In this document: one piece after another, positions 1 through 41,949 of the stretch | How the letters are laid out: the number at the start of each line of letters is the position of its first letter | How positions within the stretch are numbered: position 1 is the first letter of the stretch | Source of the DNA: Bilabrum cf. latius | Taxonomy: Eukaryota | Direction: 5' to 3' | Assembly: GCA_965178125.1 (NCBI GenBank) | Contig: CBCXTV010000009.1 | Location: 1-49,171 of the forward strand | DNA: 49,171 nt | Notes under the pieces: model-generated | Seen by the model: only the letters and a program-made list of their open reading frames with translations | Database searches by the model: none | What the model was told of the DNA's origin: nothing | Program-made: the position numbers and the translations under genes

Positions 1-396
1 CCTCGGAGGTGCGCGTTCTCAATTTCGCGTTCCCGCACAGCGCTGGAAAATTCCAGCGGATTTGATTGAAAGTGACGGTGGGCTGGCGAGACGGAGTTGT
101 AGTACCGCTCTCGGCGATTGCAGCTCGATCTCGCCGAATCTAACGCCGCGGCGTAGAAGAACGGGTGTGGCAAGCGAGGCCGTACGCTCGATGATATCAT
201 TCATTCTGCATCGGCCAGCCACATCCGCACGTATCCCCGAAAAGGTTTCGCTCCGGCGCATGGACACCGAATCCGCCTTGCTCCGTGGAACGTGCCCGCG
301 TCACATCTTCGCGGTCCGCGCGCCATTCCCAGCTCTTCCTATCGTCCGCGCTCAGCCTCGATCAAGAGGCCGGGCCTCGCAGAGAGATCGCGGCCG

Positions 397-932: not shown

Positions 933-1115
933 CTCCAGGGTCTCGACGATGTCCGGGTCCGCTTCGCCCAATGTGCTTTCGCTGGCAGCGCGCTGTCGGC
1001 ATCTCTCTGTGTGGCAAGGGTCAGGCGTCTCTCTGTGTGGCAGGGGTCCAGGTGGCGTAGCGGTTGCAAAGGAAGCTGATCGGCACCCTAAGCTCCACGT
1101 GGCGCCGCGCACGCC
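610..1115. repeat. ~130-bp imperfect direct repeat (610-740 and 984-1115)
   Basis: ggcagcgcgc.gtcggcatctctctgtgtggca...gtggcgccgcgcacgcc occurs twice. Confidence 0.9.
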
Positions 1116-2671
1116 TAGTACACCAGCTCGTGTTGGGCCAGGTGGCACCGCGTCCTTTCTGGGACCTTGTTGACTTTGACGCTCCAGTCGCAGCAGCCCG
1201 CGGTCCGCCATTCCCAGCTTTTCCTATCGCAAGGACCACAGGGCGAGCGCTTCGCCGGCCCCATCTGGAGGCCCATCCTGGGTCACTGACTACCGCCAAA
1301 TGCCACGATCGCCGGATTCCGCATGGGCCGACCCGGGTGGATCGGGAGACGGAGCGCTTCGCTTGTCGGTCCGAGGCAAGGCCTCACCTCCAGGTGTACA
1401 TCAGTCTTGCTCTCATGGGACCGCGGCGCTTGAAAGGGGCCCCGGTCGCGACCCTTTTCGAGGCCCGTCCCCGGTTCCTTTTTTGGGGCCCTCGAGGACC
1501 CCACAGTAGCGTGACACAAAGCGCCCTTGGGCGGGCTTGTTTTCGGGGCCAGATTTGGGTCCCGAAAGGTGTGCTCGAAAGAGGGGATCGTCAACAGTTC
1601 GTAGGGACGCTTCGCGGGCCGGGTTTTGGCCCCGAAAGGGGTGCTCGAAAAGGGGACGCCAACAGGTCGTGGGACCTACCATTCACCAGTGCGCTTTTTT
1701 TCCACCTGCTCTCCGCGTCACTCGGTTCACGTATACTACCTAAACGAGGCGGAATTCCGACTCGTCGGAGGGCGCCGTAGAGCTCGCCGGTCAAGCGTCA
1801 ACCCGTGTGTGACCAGCGTAGGGGCGATCCAAGTGAGCCCGCTGTGCGAGGTATTCCTGGATCGCTGTTCGAAAGAGCTTTCGGAGCCCGCCTTGAGAGC
1901 TCAAGTGGTCCGTCCGCCTCTAGACGCGCCGCGGAAAGTCGTACAGAAGTAGAATGACCGCGAGCATGCCGGCCGGCGTGGCTCACTGACTGCCCTCGGC
2001 GGCCGCCGGGTGAACTTGAACATTTCGCAGAACACTTTCTGCTTGGTGTTCCCGAGCTCGGCGATGACGTTGTATTATATGGGCCAGCTGCGGGAATGCT
2101 GGGGAGGCCAGCATCAGTGGGTGGCGAGGAAGACCAATTCCTTCCGGTGGGCAGAGGGGTCCAAGTGCCGAAAGCGACGTTCCTTCTTGCCTTGCAGGGG
2201 TTCCATGGCCAGTCGACCGGGGCCGTAACTGTGAACGGCGCCTGGCTCGGCCACGTCTTTCTATTCTCGGAGCTCAGCCTCGATCAGGAGGCCGGGCCTC
2301 CTAGGGTGACAGCAGCCGCGCGAGTCCTCCTCCACTGGAGCCGGCATGGTGGCCTCCAGCAATCGCTCCCAGATCAAGCCGTGCGGCGCCGGAGGCATGT
2401 GTCCAACGCGCATGCCTGCTCCACCAGCGGCATGTGTGGCGCGAGCATGGATTTCGGTGGTGGCGGCGGCATGGATTTCGGTGGCGGCGGCGGCATGGAT
2501 TTCGGTGGCAGCGGCATGGATTTCGATGGCGGCGGCCGAGGAAGGACCATCGCGACTCTATCTTCAGCCGGGAAACGAGCCTTCAGCCGTCCCGCGCATG
2601 AAGTGGTCTCATGTCGTCAGTATCTCCGTTCCGCAATCAAGCGTTCCTTATGTTTGGGGGTAAGCGTGTTC

Positions 2672-3027
2672 GCCCGCGCGCACCCGCCCGCCCGCCCGCC
2701 CGCGCCCACACGCCCGCCCGCGCCGACCCGCCCGCCCACCCGCGACCGACCACCCACCCGCAAGTCCCAGCCCGCCCGCCCGCCCGCGCCCGGCCGCCCG
2801 CCCGCCCGTCCGCCCGCCCGCCCGCCCGCCCGCCCGCGCAGGCGACCGCCCGCCCGTCCGGGCGCCCGCCCGCCCACCCGAGCGAACGCCCGCCCGCCCG
2901 CCGTCCCGCGCGCCCGCGCACCCGCCCGCCCGCCCGCCCGGCCGCCCGCTCGCCCCCCCGCACGACCGCCCGCCCGCCCGCCCGCCGCCCGCCCGCCCGC
3001 CCACCCGCCTGCCCGCCCGCCCGCCCA
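2672..3027. repeat. degenerate (GCCC)n tract
   Basis: Directly visible; homologue at 45721-46080. Confidence 0.95.
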
Positions 3028-3077
3028 CTGGTGACATTGGCGAAACGACAGTTTCGGCTGTGCCCATCTCCACCATA

Positions 3078-3117
3078 TCGAAATGATGAAACGAGCCCGT
3101 CGCCGTCTTCATTTCGA
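3078..3117 (+). other. stem-loop with conserved 16-nt loop (representative of a dispersed family)
   Basis: tcgaaatga.tga-AACGAGCCCGTCGCCG-tct.tcatttcga; related loops at 2574, 9363, 10652, 13013, 13876, 13910 and 43934. Confidence 0.85.
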
Positions 3118-3458
3118 TCCCAGCATGATCGCAGAATCGCTCAGACATAATCGCTCCGGCACGCAATTACGGGAAAATGAAATCACCCGCAGGTCTACCG
3201 CGCACGGCAGGAGCGTGCGGATATCTGCACACGAACCACCGACCGAGTAACGACAGCACAAAAGTGCGCGCGACACACCGATACCCTTCACCAACGCACG
3301 GGCGCATGTTCGGGAATGGGGCTCAGGATCGAGCGCACTGTCGGAAATGGGACTTGACATGAAGCTTCCCATCAGTGGCTCGCCCCCGCATTGCTCTCGG
3401 CTCGAGACACATATTAATATGCCTGTGTACGATCGAATCGTACCACCACACTCGGGCC

Positions 3459-5370
3459 ATGGAAGCGACAATCGCGTCGCTCGCGAACGCGACGCGGGCG
3501 CTTCAGCAGGCAGTTCGGCGTGCCAGAGAGCAACACCGGCGGCAAACAGCTCGCATAGCACAACTGGAAAGACACGCCCGATTTTTGGCGGTCTTCGTTG
3601 ACGTCGTCACCGCAGAGGCTTATCTGCGCCAAAAATGGCGGAATGCACCGGCTCCGGCTCTTGACGACGCGATCGCAAGTCTTCGTGCATGGCACGCTCC
3701 TCTTACGGAAGACGGTGTGCTCCGAGAGCAACAACGTCCATGGAGGTCAGAGCGTCTACAAGCGGCCACGATGACATCGCGGTTCTTGCGAGAACATGAT
3801 CTGCACAGGTGGGTTCACGAGCAGAACTACGCCAATACACTCGCACCGACGACGAACGTTTCCTCGACATTACGCAGGCTCACGAGTACCGATCCGCGGG
3901 AGCCGGACCCGAGGCATCTAGAAAAAGACAAAGCATCCGACAGTGGTGCCGGCGTTGGCGACGACGCTGGCAGGTGTCGCTCGGAACCGGGCTTCGACTC
4001 GATGCAGAATGTGTGGATCGACGACGCCTAAAGGCCACCGGACAGTGGCAAAAACACATCCGACGTTTCACGAAGAAAACCCAAAACGGGGCCATATAGC
4101 GGCCCTGGTTTCGGGGTCCGCACATATAGAACAAATACACTCTGGGCCCGGAAAACGCCCCCAAATTTGAGTAAAAAACCGGCTCAAAACGAATTTCGCG
4201 GCACGCGCGGTGTGGAAATGGTGCAACTTCTTGCGGGCCTTCGCGCCGCCGGACAAGTGCCCGGTCCACGTGAACATGGACGAAACAAGCATCCGACTCA
4301 CCGCAGTTTCACAGGCAGGTTTTCTTGTGGAAGAAGCCCGACGCCGAGTTCGCGCAGCGGGAGGCTTGCGTCAACCGACTCCGAAGCGTGAGATGCGGAG
4401 CATGATCACACAGATCATCTTCATCGCCAACAACAGCGACATCCAACCCCACTTGCCGACCATATTCCTCTTCTCAGACCGCATTGTGAGTCGCGAGCAA
4501 TTTGACGCCCTCCGCCGCGCGCTCCCTCCGAATGTGCTTCTCTTACGAGGCGCAAAGGGGGGGATGACCACCAAATTAATGTGTTGCACGCTGCGCGTGC
4601 TCGCCGATGCCCTCCATGCGTTCCGAGACACGCATCACTTTACTCTTAGCGCGGACACGTATCGAGCTCACCTGGGTCGCGCCGTATGGCATACGGCAAG
4701 TCGACTCAATTTCCACTACCATCTAATCCCCGCGAAAATGACGTGGGCGCTCCAGCCTTGCGACACGCACATCTTCGCGATTTACAAGCGCGCCATTGAA
4801 CATGAATATCAGCTCCGCATCGCGCACGCGTTACCGCGCGAGCGATGGCCACATGCGCTTTTCCACGCCGTGCTCGCGGCATTCGATCGTGTCATACGGC
4901 GACGCACGTGAGATCAAACATTCCATAGCAATGGGCTTGAGGGCTCGCAAATGAGTGTGTCAAAACGCGTTCTCAGTTTACTGCAGTGGCAAACAGTGCC
5001 CGAGGATGTGCATGAGTGGCCATCGTTCCATGAAATACAAAGTGTCTTCCCGGATCGTAGCGTTGTCGACATCGATGCTGCTTTCGCCACTCTGCTGCAT
5101 GGCCCGCGAATGCATAACATTCCACGCGCGCATCGCATGACATACCGACGTCGGGCTGAGCGTTCTCCTATTGCCACCCGACGCGCGGCAGCGACGACGG
5201 CGTCAGCCGAGTTAGTTCCAGAACCCAGCACACCGGCGCCATGACGACCCAGGACGCCGCCAGCGACGCCGACAGCGATCGCAAAACCGTCTCGCCGCCG
5301 CGATCCCCGGGGAGTGCGCCTGGGGCCACGTCCGTCGATGCCGTCATCGACAAAGGCGAAGAAGCTGTGA
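3459..5370 (+). pseudogene. pogo/Tc5-like (DDE_1) DD35D transposase pseudogene with one predicted intron (4034-4200)
   Basis: VNMDET ... ADTYRAH-(35 aa between Asp residues)-LQPCD catalytic motifs; QWCRRWRRRWQVS resembles the end of a CENP-B-type HTH; frameshift at ~3860, TGA at 4909 and 5242 (both TGG in the diverged copy), and GWM changed to GGM. Confidence 0.85.
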
Positions 5371-5654
5371 TGGTCACAGCAGAAACGCAGAGGTAGAAGC
5401 GGTGCCGGCAAAGTGGGAGGCGTCGGACCGACCAAAGCCTCCGGCAGCGGTAAGGAACTCTGAGACTTTGCTCGAGTAGATCGACCGCATGAGAGCGGAA
5501 AAAAAACAAAGCGCGCGACCTGAAGAAGCAGGTCGCGAAGAACCTCAAAAACGCAGAAAGGAGAAAGGCGAAACTGAAGCGTAAGGGGCGTGAATTGAAC
5601 GACGAGTATCTCATCGCAGTGCTGAAGATGCGACAGAATCCTCCGCAGGCGTGA
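5241..5654 (+). pseudogene. small basic coiled-coil protein overlapping the transposase 3' end (disrupted)
   Basis: ...DLKKQVAKNLKNAERRKAKLKRKGRELNDEYLIAVLKMRQ; C-terminal part is in frame in copy 2 at 20142-20306; conserved in the diverged copy. Confidence 0.55.
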
Positions 5655-6010
5655 TCCAGCCGTCAGCAAACGCAGTCTCCTCGACGGCTGTCAAGGCTCG
5701 TACAGCGAAAACCAAAGCCAATAAGAGTTGAACGAGCGCCGCTCAGAGAGCACCCGTATTGTCAGCAGGAAGCACACACATTCCCATCAGTCGAAGCACA
5801 CCGCACACGAACTGACGCAGGAAAAAAAGCCAACATAGAGGCAAAGAAAATACAAAATGTCTCCTACCCATGCCCAAAATGAACTCGAAATACGGCAAAA
5901 AAATCTCAACATACAGTTTAAACACCACGATGAACGAAGAATAAAAGCACAAAAACCTTCAAAGAAGCGCGTTTTTTTCGAAAATCAGTTCTCGAAGGGA
6001 ATGCCAAAAC

Positions 6011-6194
6011 ACTCGAAAAAAAGCGGTGTCACCGCCGACCCCTCTTTTTTTGAGGTATACCGAGAAAGAAGGCCATTTTACTCGAAAAAAACCATGGTGC
6101 CACCAAAGCGGTGCCACCGCCCTATTAATATTTTTAAAGGGCCGAGAATGGTGACACCGCTTTTTCTCGAGTAAAAAAAGAGGGCGGTGACACC
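6011..6194. promoter_or_regulatory. cluster of five GGTGNCACC palindromes with a 23-bp inverted repeat, upstream of rep
   Basis: Motifs at 6025, 6096, 6110, 6150 and 6186; IR 6011-6033 / 6150-6172 has 1 mismatch; regulatory function is inferred. Confidence 0.5.
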
Positions 6195-6933
6195 ACCTTT
6201 GGGGGCCAAAAAGAGCGAAAAGAGGGGTCGCCAAGAGGCCTTTGCCGGCCTTTGCGGAAGGACCTGCGTCGGCTTCACCTCATTGCAAGGGTTCCCGCGC
6301 AAAGTGAGTGGTACGCATCTGGTGGTGGAAGAGTTGTGTGAAGGAACGTGGTGTGCGAGGGAGATCTTCCGGAGAGGCATATGTGTCGTATGCTGCACAC
6401 GGACCCTGAAGATGAGCGACAAAGGCATTCGGGAGAAGAAGCAGTTTTAGTGAGAAGGGTGGGTACGTGTCGGGATAAGGATGCAATCCTAGTGGTGTGC
6501 GCGGCGGGTTAACGCAGGTAATCGGTGGAGGATTGGGAAGTCGTGGTGGGAGGGTGGAGATAGGTGGGACGTCAATGATGGTGGAAGGTGTAATGTGGGC
6601 GAGGAGACTCGGGTCCGGGTTTGTCGGCGTTCCTGAAACGTCAGGACATGGTGGGACCCAGGCTCTCTTGCGCGGCCGAAGGGTCCCCTCGGGCACGCTT
6701 GCCTGGGTCTGTGGCCGCTATTCTAGTTCCTGAAGACGTGTGCGCGGCGGCTGTCAAGGGCATCCGGGCAGGGTCGTGTGCCGGGCTGCGACGGTTCTGG
6801 CAGAAGTAAAATGGTGTGGCATGGTAAGGTGCGCTGTTGTTTGTGTTTTTGTGCAAGACGTCGGAATCCGATGCTGTTTGGCCTAGTGTTGTGTGTCCCT
6901 CGCATTCATTGTGTTTCCCTTGTCCCTGTGACG

Positions 6934-8577
6934 ATGAATGTATCGTCATCCGCGCCGTTGTGGGATGACGTGGTTGTCGCGTCGTCGCCCAAGTTGAAGC
7001 GCCGGCGTATGTCTGCGAAGGGTGTCCTGGCGTCGTCATACATCGACGTCAAGCAAACTCCGTCCATGTCGTCTTCTTCCTCTGGAGCTGCGGTCTCAAC
7101 TGATAGTTCCGCTCAGGAGCCTTGTGCCCAGTGGAAGGTTTTAGCCGCGTCCTTGGGCGACATTCCGACGGTGCAGAGCATGCAGAACCGGACCGTCAAG
7201 CAGCGTCGGGACTTTCTGAAAGGTCGGACACGTCTGTTTCTATGGCGAGCCGTAGAGAGAGGTTTGGAGATGCCCGCGGTGCTGCAGGGGACGTCCCTGA
7301 CGAGTGCGAAGTCTTTCTGTGAATTTCGTGCCAAGTTTGGTGCATTGTCTTTGGAAGCGAAGAAGACCGTGTCGCAGTTGTATTTGACGGCGGCCAACAT
7401 AGACCGCGATTCAGTCGCCGATCTCCTGATTCCTGACAATGAGACTCGTGGCCCGCGCTGTAGGACCTTTCTGACCTTCACTTCCGCAGAATGGTTTTTT
7501 GCGGATGCGGAGGTGCGTGCGTGCGCATGCGTTGACGACGCTGCGCTTTTGCTCATGCGTCGTGCCGACGTTGTGCGTCTGTGGCACGAGTTTGTTTCTT
7601 ATGCGCGCGCGCTTGGCGTGTTCATTGGAGCAACGCACCGGGCCATCTGTGCGGAGATATGTCCGCGGACCTTTCACCGACAGCGGAGCGCTCAAGTGCA
7701 TTTTCACGTGTGCTTTCTCCGAGGTGCAGTGCCTGGTTTCCTTCGCGTGGTCAGTCACGGGGAAACGTCGTTTCGTGGCGTTTTCCCGTATATGCGACTT
7801 CCCGAATGTTTTGAGGGCCTGTCGCGCAACGGCGTCGGCGAGTGGTTTCCATACTTTTACTGCTGTGTCAAGAAAGTCGGTCATCTGTGGACCGATTTCA
7901 ACCGGCAGCCGTTCCGCGATTATCCTGTGCACGCGCCATGGGTCATGCAGCTGGCCCAGAGCGAAAAGCTGTCGACGGACGCGGCGCGTGTGCTTCTTGA
8001 GCGCGTTGGCATCGGTGCGACTCGGTATCTAGCCCACCTTGATCTCATGGACCGGGCGCGTGCGTGCGAACGGGTGGAAGCGTACCGCTTCGCGTTGCGA
8101 CGTCGCGCGTGGAGAAGCGTGCCGGACGTCAAGGGTTGGCTCCGTCAGTACGGCGTTTTAATGGAACGGTACCGCTTTCTAGTCTTGGACGGTCCAACGG
8201 GCACCGGAAAAACCTCGTTCGCGCGGACGTTACAGCCGGAACGGATGTGTGTGTTCGAAGTGAATTGTTCGGGCGACACGTTTGCGTCACTAGAAGATTT
8301 CGTTTGGGAACGGGACGGGTTGATGTTGTTCGAAGACATCAGTCCCGCGATCGTTGTGGCGCAGCGGAAGCTCTTCCAGGCGTCGATGGCCCGTGTACGG
8401 CTTACAAGTTCGTCGTACCATGGGTATCAGTATGAAGTTTTCGCCCATGGAACACGCATGGTGTGCACGTCGAATCATTGGGACACGGGTCTCCAAGCGT
8501 TGTCCGATGAGGACCGCGTGTGGATTCTTGGCAACCAGATATACGTGTCGGTAAAAGACCCGTTGTGGATGGAGTGA
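6934..8577 (+). CDS. rep: CRESS-DNA-virus-like replication initiator (HUH endonuclease + SF3 helicase); ORF open from 6778, start codon uncertain
   Basis: Motif I TFLTF (~7465), motif II VHFHV (7699), motif III-like YFYCCVKK (7852), Walker A GPTGTGKT (8191), Walker B LMLFED (~8320-8337) and motif C VCTSN (8461), in canonical order; basic NLS-like PKLKRRR. Confidence 0.88.
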   Translation: MNVSSSAPLWDDVVVASSPKLKRRRMSAKGVLASSYIDVKQTPSMSSSSSGAAVSTDSSAQEPCAQWKVLAASLGDIPTVQSMQNRTVKQRRDFLKGRTRLFLWRAVERGLEMPAVLQGTSLTSAKSFCEFRAKFGALSLEAKKTVSQLYLTAANIDRDSVADLLIPDNETRGPRCRTFLTFTSAEWFFADAEVRACACVDDAALLLMRRADVVRLWHEFVSYARALGVFIGATHRAICAEICPRTFHRQRSAQVHFHVCFLRGAVPGFLRVVSHGETSFRGVFPYMRLPECFEGLSRNGVGEWFPYFYCCVKKVGHLWTDFNRQPFRDYPVHAPWVMQLAQSEKLSTDAARVLLERVGIGATRYLAHLDLMDRARACERVEAYRFALRRRAWRSVPDVKGWLRQYGVLMERYRFLVLDGPTGTGKTSFARTLQPERMCVFEVNCSGDTFASLEDFVWERDGLMLFEDISPAIVVAQRKLFQASMARVRLTSSSYHGYQYEVFAHGTRMVCTSNHWDTGLQALSDEDRVWILGNQIYVSVKDPLWME

Positions 8578-8653
8578 CGACAATATGCCTTTCGCATGCA
8601 ATGAACAGCATTTCAGTCATGTCTTCAGCAATATGTTGTCGCTCCGTCCACAT

Positions 8654-8748
8654 GCAGGGCAGAATGGGAGCCGGAGTCCCTACCCATCCCATTGCCCTGC
8701 GGGTCGGGCAGAACGGGATCAGGAGTCTCCTACCCATCCCGCTGTCCG
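8654..8748 (+). other. twin related hairpins downstream of the rep stop
   Basis: gcagggca(ga)atggga...tcccattgccctgc and cgggcag(aa)cgggat...atcccgctgtccg with shared loop ggagtc(t)cctaccc. Confidence 0.75.
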
Positions 8749-8949
8749 GTGCGTGTGGCACGTTCCGTCTCGATGGTGTGTTCCTCTTTGCGGTGGTACA
8801 GCGAATGCATGGATGGATCTGCGTTGCGGTTGTTTTACTCTGTGTATAGGCCCGCCTTCGCGGTGACAGTCGTAACAGTTTGCTTGCGAGGCGTGCGGTC
8901 GACGTTTGAAATTGCGTGGTGTGGGTTCGTCACGTGGTTCTTGTCCCGT

Positions 8950-9292
8950 TCGCTCGCGCCCGCCCGTCCGCGCCCGCTCGGCCGCCCGCTCGCGTTCGCG
9001 CGTTCGCCGCGCCCGCGCGGTCGCCGGCGCGCGCCCGCCTTTGCGCCCTCGTGCGCCCGCCCGTTCGCCCGTCCGCGTTCGCCCGCCCGCTCGTCCGCCC
9101 GCGCATCCGCCCGCCCGCCCGCGCACCCGTGCGCTCGCTCATGTGCGCGCCAGCGTGCCCGTGCGCGCATCCGCCCGCGCGGCCGTCCGTCCGCGCGCCC
9201 GCTCGTTCGTCCGCTCATCCGCCCGTACGCCCGCCCGTTCGTTTGCGCGCACGTCCGGCCGCCTGCCTGTCCATTTGCAGGTCCGCCCGCCC
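8950..9292. repeat. degenerate (GCCC/GYYC)n tract
   Basis: Directly visible. Confidence 0.9.
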
Positions 9293-9859
9293 GTGGTCCC
9301 ATTCGATACCTTCGCGCCATGAGATTTCTGTCATGGTTATGCGCACAAAGCCGAAATGACGAAATGAGCTTGTCGCCGTCGTCATTTCGAGATTAGGAAA
9401 GTTGCCAGGTTCAGCGTTCATAGTCGCAATGACATTCAATTGCTGTTCCAAAGGAATCAGCGGTGTGATTCCTGCGCATCACAAATGTGCGAATGCATCC
9501 GAATGCCGATCGTCCGCCGGGCGAAGACAGCGGACGAGGGTGCGCAATTCATCGATTCCATGCAGGAGCCTACAGGCGCGTGTTTGAGCCTGTTCTCATG
9601 ACGGATCACATTGTAGCAAGCTTGTGTTTTACATGAGGCTTCGCATGGGTGGTTTCGCCCCCACAGCGCTGTCGGCTGGAGACGAATCTGCAAGCGATTG
9701 ATCCATTGCCTGTGGTAGGCAGAGTTTGCGAGTCGGGCATCATCGGACCGCAACCAGTACGGAAATTGTAGGCGTGATGCGTTGATGCAGTGTGATGTCA
9801 AGGCCATTGAGTGATGTGCGGCTACGCGTTACATTGGAACGGACCATGACGATATAGTC

Positions 9860-10652
9860 GTGTTGGCTGGCAGATTCCCTGTTTCGGAGGTTCGGCCTCG
9901 GATCTTGTCGTGTCGCGTTCGCTCGTTGACCAGCCCGGCTTATGCCATGGCTGGCACGTTGGATGCAGCGGCGATAGCGACGCAGAAACGCTCGCGGAAC
10001 TCGACGTGTCAGACGGATTCGCGTTTGATGGAAGTGAAGTTTGACGTCCGGGATGGTGTCGTGCTTGTGGCAACTGAGAAGCGGGACTGGTGTGCCAAGT
10101 TAGTTTTCGCAAAGCCTGGCGAAGTCGTGTTGGCGCCCGCTGGTATGCACATTGCAGGCATTTCGGATTGTTTTTCACGCGTGGATAGCTTGATGTGAGG
10201 CATGTGCGATGAGATGGTTCCGTATGACCAGCTTACAGTGTCTGGTCAACAACGGGCGCACAGACGGTTGTATAAATTGTTGAAGGATTTGAAGCATCGC
10301 ATTTGTGTGGTCGAGGCAGCATCGTTTGCCGACGGTGCGGCTGTTCCGACTTCACGTGTGCGGAGACATACTTCTCCCACATGTGCCAGAAGAGCGTTGT
10401 CAACGTTCATGTGTGTCTTAGCGCTCGAATCGAGGATGCTGGGCATTGTGTGGCAGACATCACTCGCTCTTTTGTTTTGGGGCAAGCAATCAGGAGATGG
10501 TGGAACGCCTTATCTTTTCTGAGTCGGCGGATCGTTTGCGTGGTTATTTTGTGGAGTGGACGCATCCGATGGAAATACAGGATCCCATCACCACCGTGAT
10601 GGACACAGACTCGTCGGGGTGCGACGACGGGCCGCACGGCACCTCCCAGTAA
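9860..10652 (+). pseudogene. orphan spliced gene (predicted intron 10316-10493; in-frame TGA at 10196; start uncertain)
   Basis: ORFs 9860-10198 and 10202- share a frame; GAG|GC...CAG|GAG joins ...RICVVE to EMVERLIF... in phase 0; repeated at ~24513-25307 and 39152-39944. Confidence 0.5.
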
Positions 10653-10847
10653 ACGAGCCTGTCGCCGTTCGGGGGGGCCACGCCGCCGTCACCTCAGCGC
10701 AAGCCGTCGTGGCGCGTTTCAAGTGGGCGGCGTGAGCGGCGCGAGGGACTTCTCGCGCGAACGATCACAGTCGAGGCTCGGACTGGGGCCGTGTTTTTTT
10801 GAAAAGCCCGTGCGCGTTCGTGTTTTCCCCGTTTTTGTGCCTCGTTC

Positions 10848-11110
10848 CGCCCGTCTGCCCGCCCGCCCGCCCGCCCGCCCGCCCGCGCCCGCCTGCCCGC
10901 CCGCGCCCGCTCGCCCATCGTGCCCGCCCGCCGGCGCCCACCCGCCCGCCCGTCCGCGCGCCCGCCCGCGCTCGATCGCCCGCCCGTCCGTCCGCGCACA
11001 TCCGGTCGTCCGCCCGCGCACGCGCGCGTGCCCACCCGCCAGCCCGCCCGGCTGCTCGTCCGGTCACTCGGTCGTTCGCCCCGTTCGCCCGTTTGACCGC
11101 CCGCCCGCCC
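10848..11110. repeat. degenerate (GCCC)n tract
   Basis: Directly visible; short pure tract also at 14274-14301. Confidence 0.9.
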
Positions 11111-11466
11111 GGTAGACGCATCGAGATATGTTTCATGTCCGTCATGTGGGTTTCCTTTTCCCGTTATGCACGACGATCTTTAAATAGCGGTTCGTGTATC
11201 TCGTGCTCCGTCAGTTGGATGTCGTTTGGTCGTGAGGGTGTTCGGGCACAGTTCGTTTGGGGACAACTGGCGGTTGTCGCCACACGCGTTGTGGCGTCGA
11301 CTCTTCGATCTCGTTGATTATGGCTTGAAAAACGATGACGGAAGCCACAGCGGGTGGTAAGTATCTCCAAAGGTGGAATCATGTGTACAGTGTTGCTCGA
11401 TTTCAGCCCCGTGCGCCAAAAAAAACGGCCCCAATTTCGGTGCTGCTTTCGCCCCCGAAAAGCGAG

Positions 11467-11509
11467 CACGAAAAAGTGAAGCCCGACTGTCGGGCTTCAC
11501 TTTTTCGTG
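11467..11509. other. perfect 43-bp palindrome (21-bp arms, 1-nt centre)
   Basis: cacgaaaaagtgaagcccgac-t-gtcgggcttcactttttcgtg; also at 26117-26159; only the left half remains at ~40754-40776. Confidence 0.97.
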
Positions 11510-12597
11510 TCCATTTTCCTGGGCCGGAAACGGTCTCAAAACGAGACCCGCGGTCCTGAAATCGGGGTCGCGGATTCGTCACCTGCCTGCGGCCCCAATT
11601 CTGGTCCCCCTTTCCTAGCCCCCGCCTCGCTCCTCCCCTGTGCGTCGCTGGAGGAAATCCCCTTTTTCCGCGCTTATTTCCTTTCCCACCCTCCGTGCTG
11701 TTTTTTTTTCCAAATCTCGTTCTGTTTGCTCCCGCACGGGTTCTCGCCGTCACATTCTTAAGGCATGGGATGTGTTTCGTTCGCATGATGGGCCTGATTC
11801 TGCGACGGTGTGATGGGACGTTCCAGGGCGTGTTGCACGCGTATGAGGTTGGATCATTGCAACCGTAATCATGTCGTGCGGGCTAACGTGAGCCAAGTTT
11901 GGGAATCTCCGTACGCACACAGCCCACACAAGCGCCGACGTGATCGCAAGCCTGTCTCATATTTTCTTGTTGCGAGTCGGCGATCGGTAACGCGTGCGTT
12001 CCACCGAGAGTCGCTGACAGGGAGGACAGTTCTCGGGATATTCGGCGGTGTGATGATGGATGTTGCATCCAACGCATGAACGATTTTGCCTCCATGTCGC
12101 ACATGTCGTCATATAATCGTTGACAGAATCATGTTGTTGCATAGTGTGTCAACATGTACGAGCCTATGTAGGTCCGCCTTGGGATTGTGAGTGATTTGTC
12201 GTTACCGCATGACGTGTTCTACGCATATTTCTTTTGCTCGCCCTCCCTTCCCATCGTCTGTACTTCCCGCATTTTCGCTGTTTTGAACCTTCTCCCGCTG
12301 TTTTTGGACCCCCTTGCTTCTTTGCTATGTAAGTTTGGTCTCCGATTCATGCGCATGAATGGCAGGTTCTGAGACCGCGGGGCGAAGCACGGATTAGGGG
12401 ACATGCTGATATGGGGCTGTCGCGTTTCACTTTGCGAGCGACGTAAAACACGGTTCGAAGTTCGTATGTGGAAATTTTTGGATGTTGATGCAACCGAGCT
12501 TGTGGGAATTCGGTTCCGCGCATTTACTCGTTTTTACGTGCGCGCTCATACATGGCTTTCAGGAAAGTCCCGTCTGTGCGCATGCGTTGTCGCCAAC

Positions 12598-12987
12598 ATG
12601 GCGAGCGATACCCACGCGCGTTGGGTCACAGACGTTCTGGAGCGGCAAGTCGGCGCCCAGAGTGGTGCCCTTGCTGTCGATTCCGTGACATGTTTCGGCG
12701 AGCGGCAGAACGATGGAAGCACCTGATTGGTGGTGCGAACAACGTGGCGTGTGATCGTCGAGCGCCCGCCAGGTTTGCTCACGTTGCATGCGTGCATCAC
12801 CGGCGCGGAGTTTCTCCCCCTTGCGGCAGGACGGGCCGCAGATGGCACCGTCCTCCCGTTTGGCGAGTTGTGGAACGACGACCGCCGCACTGGCGAGGCG
12901 CGGCGCACGGCGCGCCGCAGCGCGGAGTCGACCGGCGGTCGATCGCGCTCACCCCCGGCGTCTGCGTGGCAGCGTCGCGGCGGCTGA
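12598..12987 (+). pseudogene. orphan 129-aa gene with premature TGA (12724)
   Basis: Homologue is uninterrupted at 40964-41353, with AGA at the stop position. Confidence 0.55.
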
Positions 12988-13579
12988 TGCGGTGCGTGAT
13001 CGCGTCGAACTAAACGAGCCTTTCGCCGTGGTTCGGCGTCATGTCCACAGGATCGGGCGCGCGAGCGCGCGCTTTGGCGTGGATGCCGTCGTCGCCTTCG
13101 CCACTTCTGCAGTGGGTCGCTGTTCGACTCGAGAAAGATGCACATTGTCATTTCATGCATATGAGCGTTGAAATTTCCGATTTTCATTTGTTGCGGTGTT
13201 TGGCGATTGGTTTTGTTTCACTGCATGATACATGTCGGAGATGCTGGTGTATGCGAAGGATGCAGATTGCACATATTCATGTCGAGACATAACATGTGCC
13301 GACGTATGTGAGCGATGCGGAATCCATGTCCGCGCGCGCTCATCGCGTCATTTCTTTGCTGGGGTGGATTCCGTCCGGGGCCGCGCGCGTGTTCGCACAG
13401 CGACGCCGAAGAGGCGGAAGCGTCAGCCCGACGAGGGCATCGGCGGCACATGGTTGCCGGTCCGCGCGGCGCACGCGACGGAGCTCTAGCGCAGCGGGGA
13501 GGCCGCGCTGCAGGCGCGTCGCGGGGCGCCGACATCGACCGGGAGTTGCGCCGCAGGGAGCAGAGTAAGCATGAGCGGT

Positions 13580-14263
13580 AGTCTCGTCATCGATTTCGAT
13601 GACGTCCTTGTCGATGCCGGATTGTGAGCGCGTAATGAGATCGGGCATCCCATGCGCAACAGAAGTACCTATGCGGATTTCGAGCCGCAGAGTTTCGTCC
13701 ACATCCAGAACGGTCGGCCAGTCGTGGTGCTCCATGAAGCAATCGTTGCATGACACGCATTCTTTTGTGCCGAGCATTGGGTGTTACGCAATTTCGAGGA
13801 GCTGTGAGTGTGGCATAATTTCTCGAGACAGGACATGTTGGTCAATGCACGAGTTCTTGCAATTGTGAACCGGGGAACGAGCCCTTCGCCGCCCCGTCCC
13901 ATGCCGGGACACGAGCCTGTCGCCGTCCCGTGCATAAGCTCGTCACATGTCCTCATTGGCTTTGTGAGCAATCCGACCATTTTTTATTCCGGAGGCTGAT
14001 TGTCACACACTTCGGCGCCGACCCAAACGACGCCGGGACATACCTGGTGGAGAAGCTGTTGCCGCTGCAATCACTGGTTTGCATTGCGCGGACGACCGCG
14101 CTGCAACCAGGATGCGATCAGTCGACGACAGTGCGAAGCTGGTGGGAGAATGGTAGGACGCATTAAAAAAGCATGGAGTTATCACAGTGCGGATCGTGCT
14201 TGGTATCAGCATTCGATGTATCGCCGACAAAAGTCGTGCTAACGGTGGCATATACGCGTAATA
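13580..14263 (+). pseudogene. 5' remnant of the glycosyltransferase-like locus, truncated in the tandem unit
   Basis: Aligns with 41952-42646; homology stops at ...tatacgcgtaata. Confidence 0.45.
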
Positions 14264-17200: not shown

Positions 17201-18102
17201 GACTCTATCTTCAGCCGGGAAACGAGCCTTCAGCCGTCCCGCGCATGAAGTGGTCTCATGTCGTCAGTATCTCCGTTCCGCAATCAAGCGTTCCTTATGT
17301 TTGGGGGTAAGCGTGTTCGCCCGCGCGCACCCGCCCGCCCGCCCGCCCGCGCCCACACGCCCGCCCGCGCCGACCCGCCCGCCCACCCGCGACCGACCAC
17401 CCACCCGCAAGTCCCAGCCCGCCCGCCCGCCCGCGCCCGGCCGCCCGCCCGCCCGTCCGCCCGCCCGCCCGCCCGCCCGCCCGCGCAGGCGACCGCCCGC
17501 CCGTCCGGGCGCCCGCCCGCCCACCCGAGCGAACGCCCGCCCGCCCGCCGTCCCGCGCGCCCGCGCACACCGCCCGCCCGCCCGCCCGGCCGCCCGCTCG
17601 CCCCCCCGCACGACCGCCCGCCCGCCCGCCCGCCCGCCCGCCCGCCCACCCGCCTGCCCGCCCGCCCGCCCACTGGTGACATTGGCGAAACGACAGTTTC
17701 GCTGTGCCCATCTCCACCATATCGAAATGATGAAACGAGCCCGTCGCCGTCTTCATTTCGATCCCAGCATGATCGCAGAATCGCTCAGACATAATCGCTC
17801 CGGCACGCAATTACGGGAAAATGAAATCACCCGCAGGTCTACCGCGCACGGCAGGAGCGTGCGGATATCTGCACACGAACCACCGACCGAGTAACGACAG
17901 CACAAAAGTGCGCGCGACACACCGATACCCTTCACCAACGCACGGGCGCATGTTCGGGAATGGGGCTCAGGATCGAGCGCACTGTCGGAAATGGGACTTG
18001 ACATGAAGCTTCCCATCAGTGGCTCGCCCCCGCATTGCTCTCGGCTCGAGACACATATTAATATGCCTGTGTACGATCGAATCGTACCACCACACTCGGG
18101 CC

Positions 18103-23229: not shown

Positions 23230-26200
23230 CGACAATATGCCTTTCGCATGCAATGAACAGCATTTCAGTCATGTCTTCAGCAATATGTTGTCGCTCCGTC
23301 CACATGCAGGGCAGAATGGGAGCCGGAGTCCCTACCCATCCATTGCCCTGCGGGTCGGGCAGAACGGGATCAGGAGTCTCCTACCCATCCCGCTGTCCGG
23401 TGCGTGTGGCACGTTCCGTCTCGATGGTGTGTTCCTCTTTGCGGTGGTACAGCGAATGCATGGATGGATCTGCGTTGCGGTTGTTTTACTCTGTGTATAG
23501 GCCCGCCTTCGCGGTGACAGTCGTAACAGTTTGCTTGCGAGGCGTGCGGTCGACGTTTGAAATTGCGTGGTGTGGGTTCGTCACGTGGTTCTTGTCCCGT
23601 TCGCTCGGCCCGTCCGCGCCCGCTCGGCCGCCCGCTCGCGTTCGCGCGTTTTTTTCGCCGCGCCCGCGCGGTCGCCGGCGCGCGCCCGCCTTTGCGCCCT
23701 CGTGCGCCCGCCCGTTCGCCCGTCCGCGTTCGCCCGCCCGCTCGTCCGCCCGCGCATCCGCCCGCCCGCCCGCGCACCCGTGCGCTCGCTCATGTGCGCG
23801 CCAGCGTGCCCGTGCGCGCATCCGCCCGCGCGGCCGTCCGTCCGCGCGCCCGCTCGTTCGTCCGCTCATCCGCCCGTACGCCCGCCCGTTCGTTTGCGCG
23901 CACGTCCGGCCGCCTGCCTTGTCCATTTGCAGGTCCGCCCGCCCGTGGTCCCATTCGATACCTTCGCGCCATGAGATTTCTGTCATGGTTATGCGCACAA
24001 AGCCGAAATGACGAAATGAGCTTGTCGCCGTCGTCATTTCGAGATTAGGGAAAGTTGCCAGGTTCAGCGTTCATAGTCGCAATGACATTCAATTGCTGTT
24101 CCAAAGGAATCAGCGGTGTGATTCCTGCGCATCACAAATGTGCGAATGCATCCGAATGCCGATCGTCCGCCGGGCGAAGACAGCGGACGAGGGTGCGCAA
24201 TTCATCGATTCCATGCAGGAGCCTACAGGCGCGTGTTTGAGCCTGTTCTCATGACGGATCACATTGTAGCAAGCTTGTGTTTTACATGAGGCTTCGCATG
24301 GGTGGTTTCGCCCCCACAGCGCTGTCGGCTGGAGACGAATCTGCAAGCGATTGATCCATTGCCTGTGGTAGGCAGAGTTTGCGAGTCGGGCATCATCGGA
24401 CCGCAACCAGTACGGAAATTGTAGGCGTGATGCGTTGATGCAGTGTGATGTCAAGGCCATTGAGTGATGTGCGGCTACGCGTTACATTGGAACGGACCAT
24501 GACGATATAGTCGTGTTGGCTGGCAGATTCCCTGTTTCGGAGGTTCGGCCTCGGATCTTGTCGTGTCGCGTTCGCTCGTTGACCAGCCCGGCTTATGCCA
24601 TGGCTGGCACGTTGGATGCAGCGGCGATAGCGACGCAGAAAACGCTCGCGGAACTCGACGTGTCAGACGGATTCGCGTTTGATGGAAGTGAAGTTTGACG
24701 TCCGGGATGGTGTCGTGCTTGTGGCAACTGAGAAGCGGGACTGGTGTGCCAAGTTAGTTTTCGCAAAGCCTGGCGAAGTCGTGTTGGCGGCCCGCTGGTA
24801 TGCACATTGCAGGCATTTCGGATTGTTTTTCACGCGTGGATAGCTTGATGTGAGGCATGTGCGATGAGATGGTTCCGTATGACCAGCTTACAGTGTCTGG
24901 TCAACAACGGGCGCACAGACGGTTGTATAAATTGTTGAAGGATTTGAAGCATCGCATTTGTGTGGTCGAGGCAGCATCGTTTGCCGACGGTGCGGCTGTT
25001 CCGACTTCACGTGTGCGGAGACATACTTCTCCCACATGTGCCAGAAGAGCGTTGTCAACGTTCATGTGTGTCTTAGCGCTCGAATCGAGGATGCTGGGCA
25101 TTGTGTGGCAGACATCACTCGCTCTTTTGTTTTGGGGCAAGCAATCAGGAGATGGTGGAACGCCTTATCTTTTCTGAGTCGGCGGATCGTTTGCGTGGTT
25201 ATTTTGTGGAGTGGACGCATCCGATGGAAATACAGGATCCCATCACCACCGTGATGGACACAGACTCGTCGGGGTGCGACGACGGGCCGCACGGCACCTC
25301 CCAGTAAACGAGCCTGTCGCCGTTCGGGGGGCCACGCCGCCGTCACCTCAGCGCAAGCCGTCGTGGCGCGTTTCAAGTGGGCGGCGTGAGCGGCGCGAGG
25401 GACTTCTCGCGCGATACGATCACAGTCGAGGCTCGGACTGGGGCCGTGTTTTGAAAAGCCCGTGCGCGTTCGTGTTTTCCCGTTTTTGTGCCTCGTTCCG
25501 CCCGTCTGCCCGCCCGCCCGCCCGCCCGCCCGCCCGCGCCCGCCTGCCCGCCCGCGCCCGCTCGCCCATCGTGCCCGCCCGCCGGCGCCCACCCGCCCGC
25601 CCGTCCGCGCGCCCGCCCGCGCTCGATCGCCCGCCCGTCCGTCCGCGCACATCCGGTCGTCCGCCCGCGCACGCGCGCGTGCCCACCCGCCAGCCCGCCC
25701 GGCTGCTCGTCCGGTCACTCGGTCGTTCGCCCGTTCGCCCGTTTGACCGCCCGCCCGCCCGGTAGACGCATCGAGATATGTTTCATGTCCGTCATGTGGG
25801 TTTCCTTTTCCCGTTATGCACGACGATCTTTAAATAGCGGTTCGTGTATCTCGTGCTCCGGTCAGTTGGATGTCGTTTGGTCGTGAGGGTGTTCGGGCAC
25901 AGTTCGTTTGGGGACAACTGGCGGTTGTCGCCACACGCGTTGTGGCGTCGACTCTTCGATCTCGTTGATTATGGCTTGAAAAACGATGACGGAAGCCACA
26001 GCGGGTGGTAAGTATCTCCAAAGGTGGAATCATGTGTACAGTGTTGCTCGATTTCAGCCCCGTGCGCCAAAAAAACGGCCCCAATTTCGGTGCTGCTTTC
26101 GCCCCCGAAAAGCGAGCACGAAAAAGTGAAGCCCGACTGTCGGGCTTCACTTTTTCGTGTCCATTTTCCTGGGCCGGAAACGGTCTCAAAACGAGACCCG

Positions 26201-29200
26201 CGGTCCTGAAATCGGGGTCGCGGATTCGTCACCTGCCTGCGGCCCCAATTCTGGTCCCCCTTTCCTAGCCCCCGCCTCGCTCCTCCCCTGTGCGTCGCTG
26301 GAGGAAATCCCCTTTTTCCGCGCTTATTTCCTTTCCCACCCTCCGTGCTGTTTTTTTTCCAAATCTCGTTCTGTTTGCTCCCGCACGGGTTCTCGCCGTC
26401 ACATTCTTAAGGCATGGGATGTGTTTCGTTCGCATGATGGGCCTGATTCTGCGACGGTGTGATGGGACGTTCCAGGGCGTGTTGCACGCGTATGAGGTTG
26501 GATCATTGCAACCGTAATCATGTCGTGCGGGCTAACGTGAGCCAAGTTTGGGAATCTCCGTACGCACACAGCCCACACAAGCGCCGACGTGATCGCAAGC
26601 CTGTCTCATATTTTCTTGTTGCGAGTCGGCGATCGGTAACGCGTGCGTTCCACCGAGAGTCGCTGACAGGGAGGACAGTTCTCGGGGATATTCGGCGGTG
26701 TGATGATGGATGTTGCATCCAACGCATGAACGATTTTGCCTCCATGTCGCACATGTCGTCATATAATCGTTGACAGAATCATGTTGTTGCATAGTGTGTC
26801 AACATGTACGAGCCTATGTAGGTCCGCCTTGGGATTGTGAGTGATTTGTCGTTACCGCATGACGTGTTCTACGCATATTTCTTTTGCTCGCCCTCCCTTC
26901 CCATCGTCTGTACTTCCCGCATTTTCGCTGTTTTGAACCTTCTCCCGCTGTTTTTGGACCCCCTTGCTTCTTTGCTATGTAAGTTTGGTCTCCGATTCAT
27001 GCGCATGAATGGCAGGTTCTGAGACCGCGGGGCGAAGCACGGATTAGGGGACATGCTGATATGGGGCTGTCGCGTTTCACTTTGCGAGCGACGTAAAACA
27101 CGGTTCGAAGTTCGTATGTGGAAATTTTTGGATGTTGATGCAACCGAGCTTGTGGGAATTCGGTTCCGCGCATTTACTCGTTTTTACGTGCGCGCTCATA
27201 CATGGCTTTCAGGAAAGTCCCGTCTGTGCGCATGCGTTGTCGCCAACATGGCGAGCGATACCCACGCGCGTTGGGTCACAGACGTTCTGGAGCGGCAAGT
27301 CGGCGCCCAGAGTGGTGCCCTTGCTGTCGATTCCGTGACATGTTTCGGCGAGCGGCAGAACGATGGAAGCACCTGATTGGTGGTGCGAACAACGTGGCGT
27401 GTGATCGTCGAGCGCCCGCCAGGTTTGCTCACGTTGCATGCGTGCATCACCGGCGCGGAGTTTCTCCCCCTTGCGGCAGGACGGGCCGCAGATGGCACCG
27501 TCCTCCCGTTTGGCGAGTTGTGGAACGACGACCGCCGCACTGGCGAGGCGCGGCGCACGGCGCGCCGCAGCGCGGAGTCGACCGGCGGTCGATCGCGCTC
27601 ACCCCCGGCGTCTGCGTGGCAGCGTCGCGGCGGCTGATGCGGTGCGTGATCGCGTCGAACTAAACGAGCCTTTCGCCGTGGTTCGGCGTCATGTCCACAG
27701 GATCGGGCGCGCGAGCGCGCGCTTTGGCGTGGATGCCGTCGTCGCCTTCGCCACTTCTGCAGTGGGTCGCTGTTCGACTCGAGAAAGATGCACATTGTCA
27801 TTTCATGCATATGAGCGTTGAAATTTCCGATTTTCATTTGTTGCGGTGTTTGGCGATTGGTTTTGTTTCACTGCATGATACATGTCGGAGATGCTGGTGT
27901 ATGCGAAGGATGCAGATTGCACATATTCATGTCGAGACATAACATGTGCCGACGTATGTGAGCGATGCGGAATCCATGTCCGCGCGCGCTCATCGCGTCA
28001 TTTCTTTGCTGGGGTGGATTCCGTCCGGGGCCGCGCGCGTGTTCGCACAGCGACGCCGAAGAGGCGGAAGCGTCAGCCCGACGAGGGCATCGGCGGCACA
28101 TGGTTGCCGGTCCGCGCGGCGCACGCGACGGAGCTCTAGCGCAGCGGGGAGGCCGCGCTGCAGGCGCGTCGCGGGGCGCCGACATCGACCGGGAGTTGCG
28201 CCGCAGGGAGCAGAGTAAGCATGAGCGGTAGTCTCGTCATCGATTTCGATGACGTCCTTGTCGATGCCGGATTGTGAGCGCGTAATGAGATCGGGCATCC
28301 CATGCGCAACAGAAGTACCTATGCGGATTTCGAGCCGCAGAGTTTCGTCCACATCCAGAACGGTCGGCCAGTCGTGGTGCTCCATGAAGCAATCGTTGCA
28401 TGACACGCATTCTTTTGTGCCGAGCATTGGGTGTTACGCAATTTCGAGGAGCTGTGAGTGTGGCATAATTTCTCGAGACAGGACATGTTGGTCAATGCAC
28501 GAGTTCTTGCAATTGTGAACCGGGGAACGAGCCCTTCGCCGCCCCGTCCCATGCCGGGACACGAGCCTGTCGCCGTCCCGTGCATAAGCTCGTCACATGT
28601 CCTCATTGGCTTTGTGAGCAATCCGACCATTTTTTATTCCGGAGGCTGATTGTCACACACTTCGGCGCCGACCCAAACGACGCCGGGACATACCTGGTGG
28701 AGAAGCTGTTGCCGCTGCAATCACTGGTTTGCATTGCGCGGACGACCGCGCTGCAACCAGGATGCGATCAGTCGACGACAGTGCGAAGCTGGTGGGAGAA
28801 TGGTAGGACGCATTAAAAAAGCATGGAGTTATCACAGTGCGGATCGTGCTTGGTATCAGCATTCGATGTATCGCCGACAAAAGTCGTGCTAACGGTGGCA
28901 TATACGCGTAATACCCCATTCATCCGCCCGCCCGCCCGCCCGCCCGCCCGCACAAGGGGGAGCCGACATTTTCTGCCGCCATTGAGAAAGCGCGGATGGA
29001 AATGGTGCGCCTGGGTCTGGCATGAATTGAGGATATAGACGCTTGCGAGACTCACCTTGTTGGCAGCCCCTGACGGCACCGATGACAAACATACAAAGAT
29101 GCCTGGCGTTTTGGATTGGCTGATCATGGCGAGGAGTTCCGAGTACATTTGTTGTAGATGTAATGTTGATGATAGCTTACCATCCACCAGCACTTTTTCA

Positions 29201-32200: not shown

Positions 32201-32751
32201 TCCCGCGCGCCCGCGCACCCGCCCGCCCGCCCGCCCGGCCGCCCGCTCGCCCCCCCGCACGACCGCCCGCCCGCCCGCCCGCCCGCCCGCCCGCCCACCC
32301 GCCTGCCCGCCCGCCCGCCCACTGGTGACATTGGCGAAACGACAGTTTCGCTGTGCCCATCTCCACCATATCGAAATGATGAAACGAGCCCGTCGCCGTC
32401 TTCATTTCGATCCCAGCATGATCGCAGAATCGCTCAGACATAATCGCTCCGGCACGCAATTACGGGAAAATGAAATCACCCGCAGGTCTACCGCGCACGG
32501 CAGGAGCGTGCGGATATCTGCACACGAACCACCGACCGAGTAACGACAGCACAAAAGTGCGCGCGACACACCGATACCCTTCACCAACGCACGGGCGCAT
32601 GTTCGGGAATGGGGCTCAGGATCGAGCGCACTGTCGGAAATGGGACTTGACATGAAGCTTCCCATCAGTGGCTCGCCCCCGCATTGCTCTCGGCTCGAGA
32701 CACATATTAATATGCCTGTGTACGATCGAATCGTACCACCACACTCGGGCC

Positions 32752-41353: not shown

Positions 41354-41949
41354 TGCGGTGAGTGATCGCGTCGAACTAAAACGAGCCTTTCGCCGTGGTT
41401 CGGCGTCATGTCCAGAGGGGTCCGGCGCGCGGGCGCGTGCGATGGCGTGGATGCCGTCGGCGCCTTCACGACTCCTGCAGCGGGCGGCTGTTCAACTCGA
41501 GGATGAATGCACATTGTCATTTTATGCATATGAGCGTTGAAATTTCCAATTTTCATTTGTTGCGGGTATTTGGCGATTGGTTTTGTTTCACAGCATGAAA
41601 CATGTCGGAAATGCTGGTGTATGCGGAAGATTGCAGATTGCACATATTCATGTCGTGACATAACATGTGCTGACGTATGTGAACGCTGCGGAATCCATGT
41701 CCGCCCGCGCTTATCGCGTCATTTCTTTACTGGGATGGATTCCGTCCGGGCCCACGCGCGTCTTCGCACACCGATGCCGAAGAGGAAGAAGCGTCAGCCC
41801 GACGAAAGGCATCGGCGGCACATGGCTGCCGGTCCACGCAGCGCACGCGACGGAGCTCCAGCGCAGCGGGGAGGCCACGCTGCAGGCGCGTCGCGGAGCG
41901 CCGACACCGGCCGGAAGTCGCGCCGCAGGAAGCAGAGCCAGCGCGAGCG

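Follow-up and report, generated by a model that had tools for sequence, protein, structure and literature searches.

A family of same-strand hairpins with a conserved apical module, maintained by selection in a Rep-type replicon

Protein-binding hairpins that present a conserved loop or bulge on variable stems are well known in RNA, as in the iron-responsive element (IRE), the histone stem-loop, the MS2/PP7 operators and the dispersed packaging signals of viruses. At the DNA level, each segment of a nanovirus carries an origin hairpin, with TAGTATTAC in the common region (as given in parts of PMC12211011), while the single-strand origin (sso) of rolling-circle plasmids is, in the sections of PMC5703833 that concern it, a folded element that functions only on the leading strand, whose orientation cannot be reversed and whose position is flexible. 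Here we describe a hairpin family in a stretch of 49,171 nucleotides of Bilabrum cf. latius DNA (assembly GCA_965178125.1, contig CBCXTV010000009.1, positions 1 to 49,171, forward strand; this whole stretch is called the window). Most of the window consists of tandem copies of a 14.65-kb unit with a Rep-like gene. The hairpins all lie on the + strand and carry one apical module on stems of unrelated sequence. The hairpin is maintained by selection and is probably a protein-binding signal on single-stranded DNA (ssDNA) or RNA, and not a site at which Rep cuts.

The window is a head-to-tail array of ca. 2.8 near-identical copies of the unit (1-14647, 14648-29297 and 29298-40776), the three copies differing by 1 to 3 substitutions and by indels that are mostly of 1 nt. 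At 40776 the array passes directly from 11490 to 12410 of the unit, and what follows is a diverged copy with 89% identity to unit 12410-14263 and 91% identity to unit 2535-6112, the second part running to the end of the window. Between these two parts, a unique module of 2.9 kb (42646-45585) stands in place of unit 14263 through 2535, without detectable similarity to it. The array could equally be chromosomal or a concatemer of a circle. The G+C content of the window is ca. 60%, and no tRNAs were found in it.

Exact matches to the motif AACGAGCCYNNNGCCG number 18 in the window, all on the + strand, versus 0.01 expected from shuffles; at up to two mismatches there are 27, once more all on the + strand, versus 4.66 expected. 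Four of these 27 (at 4331, 18976, 33624 and 47338) are not hairpins, and they are not recovered by the covariance model (R1) that we built from 13 instances and ran with filters off on both strands. The model detects 25 hairpins at E<0.001, 25 of 25 on the + strand, and the runner-up reaches 14.2 bits (E 0.065). Hairpin length is 26-40 nt, and there are seven hairpins in each 14.65-kb unit, repeated in the later copies, plus two in the unique module. The tandem copies are near-identical and therefore not independent evidence. Only about nine hairpins are independent, and some of these are old paralogues (2574/13910 and 3090/9363). An earlier note on this DNA had reported a dispersed same-strand family, and the family is real: within the window the model recovers every site listed there, those of the diverged copy and the one at 43934 included, and all on the + strand. 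For the unique module, the note was right about the hairpin at 43934 and had missed a second one at 42951-42990.

In the first unit, h2574 (2562..2601, 45.3 bits) has the stem cggga/tcccg, extended by cttca/tgaag, and h3090 (3078..3117, 42.2 bits) a stem of 12-13 bp with one T.T mismatch. The paralogue of the latter, h9363 (9351..9390, 38.9 bits), has a perfect stem of 11 bp and the core AATGAGCTTGTCGCCG, in which positions 3 and 16 form a U3.G16 pair. The 10-bp stem of h10652 (10640..10679, 35.4 bits) has two mismatches and one G.T, and that of h13013 (13001..13040, 38.4 bits) contains three G.T/U wobbles. The last two form a tandem pair, with h13876 first (13871..13897, cgggg/ccccg, 31.3 bits) and h13910 second (13898..13937, core starting with CACGAGCC, 45 bits). 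Model R1 places the copies of h2574 at 17209..17248 (unit 2) and 31859..31898 (unit 3), those of h3090 at 17722..17761 and 32371..32410, those of h9363 at 24003..24042 and 38643..38682, and those of h10652 at 25295..25334 and 39932..39971, in units 2 and 3, respectively. Unit 2 also has the copies of h13013 (27651..27690), h13876 (28521..28547) and h13910 (28548..28587). Orthologues in the diverged copy are found for h13013 (41368..41407, with one extra A in the bulge), h13876 (42245..42270, with a pentaloop 1 nt shorter), h13910 (42271..42310), h2574 (45613..45652) and h3090 (46132..46171), all five again placed by the model. The unique module contributes h42963 (42951..42990, stem acagg/cctgt, core CATGAGCCTTTCGCCA, with a compensatory U3:A16 pair; 20.3 bits, E 0.00087) and h43934 (43922..43961, 35 bits). 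All of them are on the + strand.

The 16-nt core had been described as an open loop, which it is not. Eight of its 16 bases are paired (C3-G16, G4-C15, G6-C14 and C7-G13), and only a CYNNN pentaloop and the bulges are unpaired. Read upward from the variable lower stem, the apical module consists of a junction bulge, which is AA except in two hairpins that have CA, then 2 bp, the bulged A5, another 2 bp and the pentaloop. The lower stems range from 5 to ca. 13 bp and represent at least six unrelated sequences. Among the nine independent hairpins, 96.3% of pair cells hold standard pairs, versus 74.9% (standard deviation 3.3) in column shuffles, with 0 of 500 shuffles matching the observed value; in slid controls, in which the partner was moved by 1-3 columns, pairing was 66.7% at most. 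Both sides have changed at six of the nine pairs, and the apical pair C3:G16 has become U:A in h42963 and U:G in h9363. The stems thus covary, and a lack of covariation would have spoken against the family as first described.

Sequence comparison between copies tells of selection. The canonical and diverged copies differ at 515 of 5470 aligned columns (9.4%), in contrast to 2 of 116 constrained hairpin positions, which are those of the 5-bp stem and of the core, the three N positions excepted (one-sided Fisher P ~0.001). Of the two differences, one brings back the consensus A1 and the other adds an A to the bulge. Between h3090 and h9363, which are paralogues, 34 of 39 hairpin bases are retained, in surroundings that are 68% identical over 222 nt (blastn), and one of the differences between them converts the T.T mismatch to a C-G pair. 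Hairpin structure and apical sequence are under purifying selection, and the proposal that structure and loop together are selected is supported by stem covariation, by the low divergence of the constrained positions and by the retention between paralogues.

The same comparisons bear on an explanation that needs no single-strand function, in which the hairpin is a binding site in double-stranded DNA (dsDNA) or a small palindromic repeat, selfish in nature, that duplication has multiplied inside the unit. The paralogy of h2574 and h13910 extends beyond the hairpin, over about 50-115 nt, as does that of h3090 and h9363, and both strands fold about equally well, all of which would suit such an origin. 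However, one apical module is borne by no fewer than six unrelated stems, with compensatory changes, conservation is much higher in the hairpin than in the sequence on either side, and an inverted repeat around it would be superfluous for a dsDNA site. The composition of the pairs also counts against it. The lower stems contain 72 Watson-Crick pairs, 5 G.T, 0 A.C and 5 other mismatches, to which one apical U.G is added, and this asymmetry of G.T over A.C (6:0) points to single-stranded use of the + strand, although it does not separate RNA from ssDNA. We consider a function without single strands very unlikely.

Little of the unit looks coding, and it has two recognisable genes, both on the + strand: rep and a DDE_1-family gene. 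The Rep-like open reading frame (ORF; P0001) at 6778..8577 on the + strand, with copies at 21430-23229 and 36070-37869, is intact over 599 codons and is the only intact recognisable gene of the unit. It shows, in order, FLTFT (motif I), HFHVCF (HUH), Y361..K366, GPTGTGKT (Walker A), LMLFED (Walker B) and CTSN (motif C of superfamily 3, SF3). These motifs are invariant or nearly so among 40 relatives, and T233, H308, H310, Y361, K366, G472, G477, K478 and N566 are invariant in the 40-sequence alignment. The ORF shows the motif set of an HUH Rep with an SF3-type helicase, P-loop included, and judged by it the element is a Rep replicon. A library of 1.84 billion proteins holds 1029 clusters of this family at E<=0.001 and 184 at E<=1e-30, and the top 10 relatives are annotated as “hypothetical protein” at most. 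Neither the ORF nor the 20 relatives scanned match the Rep families of Pfam, and a profile search of the PDB with the ORF gave two weak matches only (E 0.77 and 0.83). The protein also has a KRRR motif and, ahead of its HUH domain on the N-terminal side, a conserved region of ca. 115 residues.

A candidate origin lies ca. 600 nt upstream of rep, where the G+C content of the unit is lowest. It is a long, imperfect palindrome (6080..6172, + strand; copies near 20732-20824 and 35372-35464) that folds as DNA with -25.7 kcal/mol (z = -5.5) and has the AT-rich apical loop TATTAATATTTTTAAA, which contains TAATATT. This heptamer occurs once per unit, in the origin-like loop only and on the + strand, the exception being an insertion in unit 2 (19724-19732). 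Around the palindrome are GCGGTGNCACC iterons at 6023, 6108, 6150 and 6184, in a cluster that spans 6023-6196 (copies ca. 20675-20848 and ca. 35315-35488). The window has 26 strand matches to GCGGTGNCACC versus 7.6 expected, the sole site per unit outside the cluster is at 1141, and one iteron has a perfect counterpart at 49080, in the diverged copy. A stem-loop with an AT-rich loop and iterons is the layout of classical Rep origins in geminiviruses and other DNA viruses of the CRESS type (circular, Rep-encoding, single-stranded), in which the TAATATT heptamer is written on the nicked strand. From this resemblance, we take the AT-rich, iteron-flanked stem-loop upstream of rep to be the most likely nick origin of Rep. 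The hairpins, seven per unit, come no closer to rep than 786 nt 3' of its stop, and no GCGGTGNCACC iteron was found beside any of them in the window. Their loop differs from the canonical Rep nonanucleotide, as had been noted before; the pattern NANTATTAC has 0 matches in the window.

It had been proposed that the hairpins are multiple sites of Rep nicking and joining that delimit shufflable modules. As such, or as termination sites, they would allow the segments between them to be released, circularised and shuffled. The hairpins share unit and strand with the Rep gene, and for some HUH transposases, IS608 among them, the cut falls at a set distance from a hairpin. A 2.9-kb module has been exchanged for unrelated sequence of similar size between the positions of h13910 and h2574; the homology returns 33 nt 5' of the h2574 stem, and at 2546 there are breaks in contigs of one public sequencing run (X1). 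HUH enzymes recognise strand-specific ssDNA hairpins (in the parts of PMC10288648 that treat them). These points notwithstanding, we hold such a role to be very unlikely. A separate, canonical-looking origin with iterons exists, the hairpins are without iterons, their conserved bases are paired, the open pentaloop varies at three of its five positions, and additional cleavable origins would fragment the replicon.

The breakpoints tell against it too. The rearrangements in the window, unit 11490|12410 and 14263|2535, have four ends, of which one (2536, 33 nt 5' of the h2574 stem) is within 50 nt of a hairpin; the other three are 338-838 nt from any hairpin, 14263 being 338 nt from h13910. The 11490|12410 junction falls at the apex of a different palindrome, with a perfect core of 21 bp (11466-11509). 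This palindrome has 41-nt arms (11447-11529), and the third unit switches at 40776 exactly at its apex. The switch could be due to palindrome-mediated recombination, to a hairpin nick or template switch, or to a chimera of assembly or amplification. Among contig joints in four runs, 0 of 30 ends lie within 50 nt of a hairpin (the 15 best-supported of 330 joints), and 1 of 13 distinct places with loose ends is near one (2546, run X1; 24 of 1933 loose ends). The positions of joints and loose ends are weak negative evidence against breakpoints at the hairpins. The hairpin loops coincide with none of the module boundaries and with none of the best-supported joints, and the proposed module borders are not borne out. 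As an observation apart, many joints (three runs) link C-rich arrays to each other, skipping 1.8-8.2 kb, and may be real deletion variants or alignment ambiguity.

The reading that we prefer, tentatively and at somewhat less than an even chance, is that the hairpins are strand-specific protein-recognition sites that act on the displaced + strand, as ssDNA, in the manner of accessory signals. Rolling-circle replication from the AT-rich origin would displace the + strand as ssDNA, and one sequence-specific protein would read the apical module, presented on any sufficiently long stem. The hairpins might then be start sites of complementary-strand synthesis, sso-like in function, or alternatively contact points for packaging or coating the displaced + strand. 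We favour ssDNA because Rep is present and is the only intact recognisable gene in the unit, because the TAATATT of the origin shares the strand of the hairpins, and because plasmid sso share with them the dependence on strand and orientation together with a flexible position. A further reason is that five of the seven hairpins lie at 9.3-14 kb, a region without any Pfam family match. Within it, 12410-14263, the only part that can be compared with the diverged copy, has synonymous to non-synonymous changes of 3:39 and 17:43 and new stops, and so shows no coding constraint.

Several points weigh against the ssDNA reading. We infer the ssDNA state of the + strand, the action at the DNA level and the identity of the binding protein alike, and the choice of nicked strand follows from a resemblance of 7 nt only, the full NANTATTAC being absent. 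To our knowledge, no sso system has seven sites per replicon. The host looks eukaryote-like (the KRRR motif in Rep, the DDE_1/pogo-type gene and long microsatellites), and we know of no specific complementary-strand signal of such a kind in eukaryotes. Folding energy gives the + strand no preference, the summed RNA minimum energies of the nine hairpins being ca. -134 kcal/mol for the + strand versus -143 for the - strand. For h13013, the RNA fold has a z of -2.84 versus -1.49 for the DNA fold, and its three wobbles are unchanged in the diverged copy. G.U tolerance, like helices of 2 bp next to bulges, is more typically a property of RNA. Finally, the hairpins are sense-oriented to rep and to the DDE_1 pseudogene, the two recognisable genes, and would therefore occur in any + strand transcript.

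Much of this is what one would expect if the hairpins acted as RNA, in + strand transcripts (the untranslated regions of mRNA or a long non-coding read-through RNA), where an RNA-binding protein of the host or of the element would control 3'-end formation, stability, export or packaging. A conserved apical loop with a bulged A, on variable stems and in several copies, is the design of RNA operator hairpins, and G.U wobbles are tolerated and A.C pairs absent. The apical fold lies within the RNA minimum-energy structure of 8 of 9 hairpins (it is also found in most DNA folds), and h3090 and h9363 bracket the coding core, the former 285 nt ahead of ORF 3375 and the latter 786 nt beyond the rep stop. 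However, Rfam gave 0 matches at the gathering threshold over the whole window and none at any hairpin of unit 1 even at E<=5, and a search beside the hairpins found no shared motif or downstream element and no poly(A)- or TATA-type signal. Most hairpins lie in sequence without detectable genes or coding constraint, so an mRNA signal has little to act on there. To us an RNA signal competes closely with the ssDNA reading, but is well short of an even chance.

A broader version of the ssDNA reading can be put forward, although we find it doubtful. A 14.65-kb, eukaryote-associated, very high-copy Rep replicon would use a repeated ssDNA hairpin as distributed single-strand signals, i.e., multiple complementary-strand origins or binding sites for Rep or capsid, possibly also breakpoints of module exchange. 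If this were true, the replicon would correspond, in rolling-circle form, to an integron-like cassette system or to a multi-sso genome, and would belong to an unannotated Rep family of more than 1000 clusters.

The second recognisable gene, transposase-like and of the DDE_1 family (pogo-type), is at 4210-5364 on the + strand, with copies at 18855 and 33503 and a diverged copy from 47159, and is 80% identical to a database protein of 386 amino acids (aa). Two TGG-to-TGA changes disrupt it in the canonical copies and a frameshift does so in the diverged one; we take it for a pseudogene because the two TGA codons stand at Trp positions. An alternative genetic code was considered and rejected; the TGA stop of Rep coincides with the ends of its homologues, and the internal TGAs of the DDE_1 gene, at Trp positions of the relative, are nonsense mutations, while its final TGA matches the end of the relative. 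The insertion at 19724-19732 is of 9 nt and lies in the DDE_1 pseudogene of unit 2; the other two units lack it. A Pfam scan of 113 ORFs of at least 90 aa gave weak matches to DDE_1 and AAA_22 only. Three other ORFs were discarded as genes: the minus-strand ORF 4914-5669 arises artefactually from the DDE_1 frame on the + strand, and 157-1170 and 2096-3034 are read-through of a 21-24-nt minisatellite or of (CCCG)n. The minisatellites, with the unit GGCATGGATTTCGGTGGCGGC of 21-24 nt, are at 396-933 and 2438-2536 and translate as Gly-Met-Asp-Phe repeats, giving long spurious ORFs; a related minisatellite-repeat ORF is present on a database contig of 30.5 kb (P0167). C-rich arrays of (CCCG or CCGC)n on the + strand (2683-3026, 8951-9237 and 10847-11050) lie 64-195 nt from four of the seven hairpins, one between h2574 and h3090, one before h9363 and one after h10652. 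The dinoflagellate spliced-leader sequence had 0 matches in the window at up to three mismatches.

Some public sequencing runs contain the element in great abundance and in heterogeneous form. The stretch 6700-9500 is present in 13 public runs from 10 studies. In run X1 there are 41,250 contigs on the unit at 80-100% identity, spread from >99% to <90%, with differences that are mostly transitions. The unit is found at lower depth in runs of other organisms (X5, X6 and X7, examined beside X1). In X7, cover at >=95% identity is confined to ca. 6556-8948 (rep plus flanks), with low depth elsewhere, and contigs of the rep region there have 230-310 letters with 4-14 differences each.

Searches for the hairpin elsewhere gave little. 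Among metagenome contigs, the pattern scan returned 36 single-motif loci, dismissed as chance since none had Rep or similarity to the unit; in viral contigs, one pattern scan gave 4 single-motif matches, also chance, and another 0, and protein scans of viral contigs found nothing. No relative was found in the genome contigs scanned, and the phage and plasmid collections had no match by blastn or tblastn. The main texts of the literature searched contained no description of the motif or the element, and the 8-mer AACGAGCC appeared there in 15 papers, the 13 listed having it in unrelated contexts only. The hairpin is a well-defined, selected, structured motif without an Rfam match, in an element whose Rep family has no Pfam model. 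If it acts on ssDNA, accessory single-strand signals in multiple copies would be seen here for the first time in a Rep replicon of such size, and would bear on how a replicon several times the typical CRESS size converts or packages its displaced strand; if it acts in RNA, the hairpins would represent a protein-RNA recognition module not described before. Either way, the covariance model is a specific marker for finding and delimiting this family of elements.

Compared with known systems, the locus shares features with several and coincides with none. The integron attC sites are likewise a same-strand series of folded single-strand sites between modules; in attC, the conserved R and L boxes sit at the stem base, beneath a variable top, whereas here the apex is conserved and the base variable, and no tyrosine recombinase was found in the Pfam scan of 113 ORFs. 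With RNA protein-binding hairpins, ours share architecture, multiplicity and wobble tolerance, and they differ in that neither sequence nor covariance model links them to an Rfam family. The origins of CRESS viruses, nanoviruses and geminiviruses are also one-strand hairpins with a conserved apical sequence in a Rep-encoding replicon, but their loop is unrelated to the one described here, in which the conserved bases are paired, seven copies occur per unit and iterons are not adjacent. HUH transposons (IS200/IS605, the 3' hairpin of Helitron, REP/RAYT) are similar in that HUH proteins bind strand-specific ssDNA hairpins (PMC10288648, in part); the Rep described here differs by its SF3-type helicase, being neither a Helitron with SF1B nor a helicase-less Y1 transposase, and no terminal motifs are shared beside the hairpins. 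Comparable, too, are the sso of bacterial rolling-circle plasmids (ssoA, ssoU and others), which, as far as the source cited at the outset goes, act on the displaced strand alone and are orientation-fixed, position-flexible relative to rep and folded, with short conserved sequences, and our hairpins have the same character of a strand- and orientation-specific folded element (25 of 25 on the + strand, with covariation). Plasmid sso, however, are ca. 160 nt long, occur once or twice per plasmid and are bacterial, and the hairpins described here are of 26-40 nt, seven per unit, in a eukaryote-like element. By this comparison the hairpin is, in type, probably a cis-acting protein-binding hairpin, comparable in its working to an sso or to an RNA operator hairpin, that belongs to no described family, carried by a poorly known Rep replicon.

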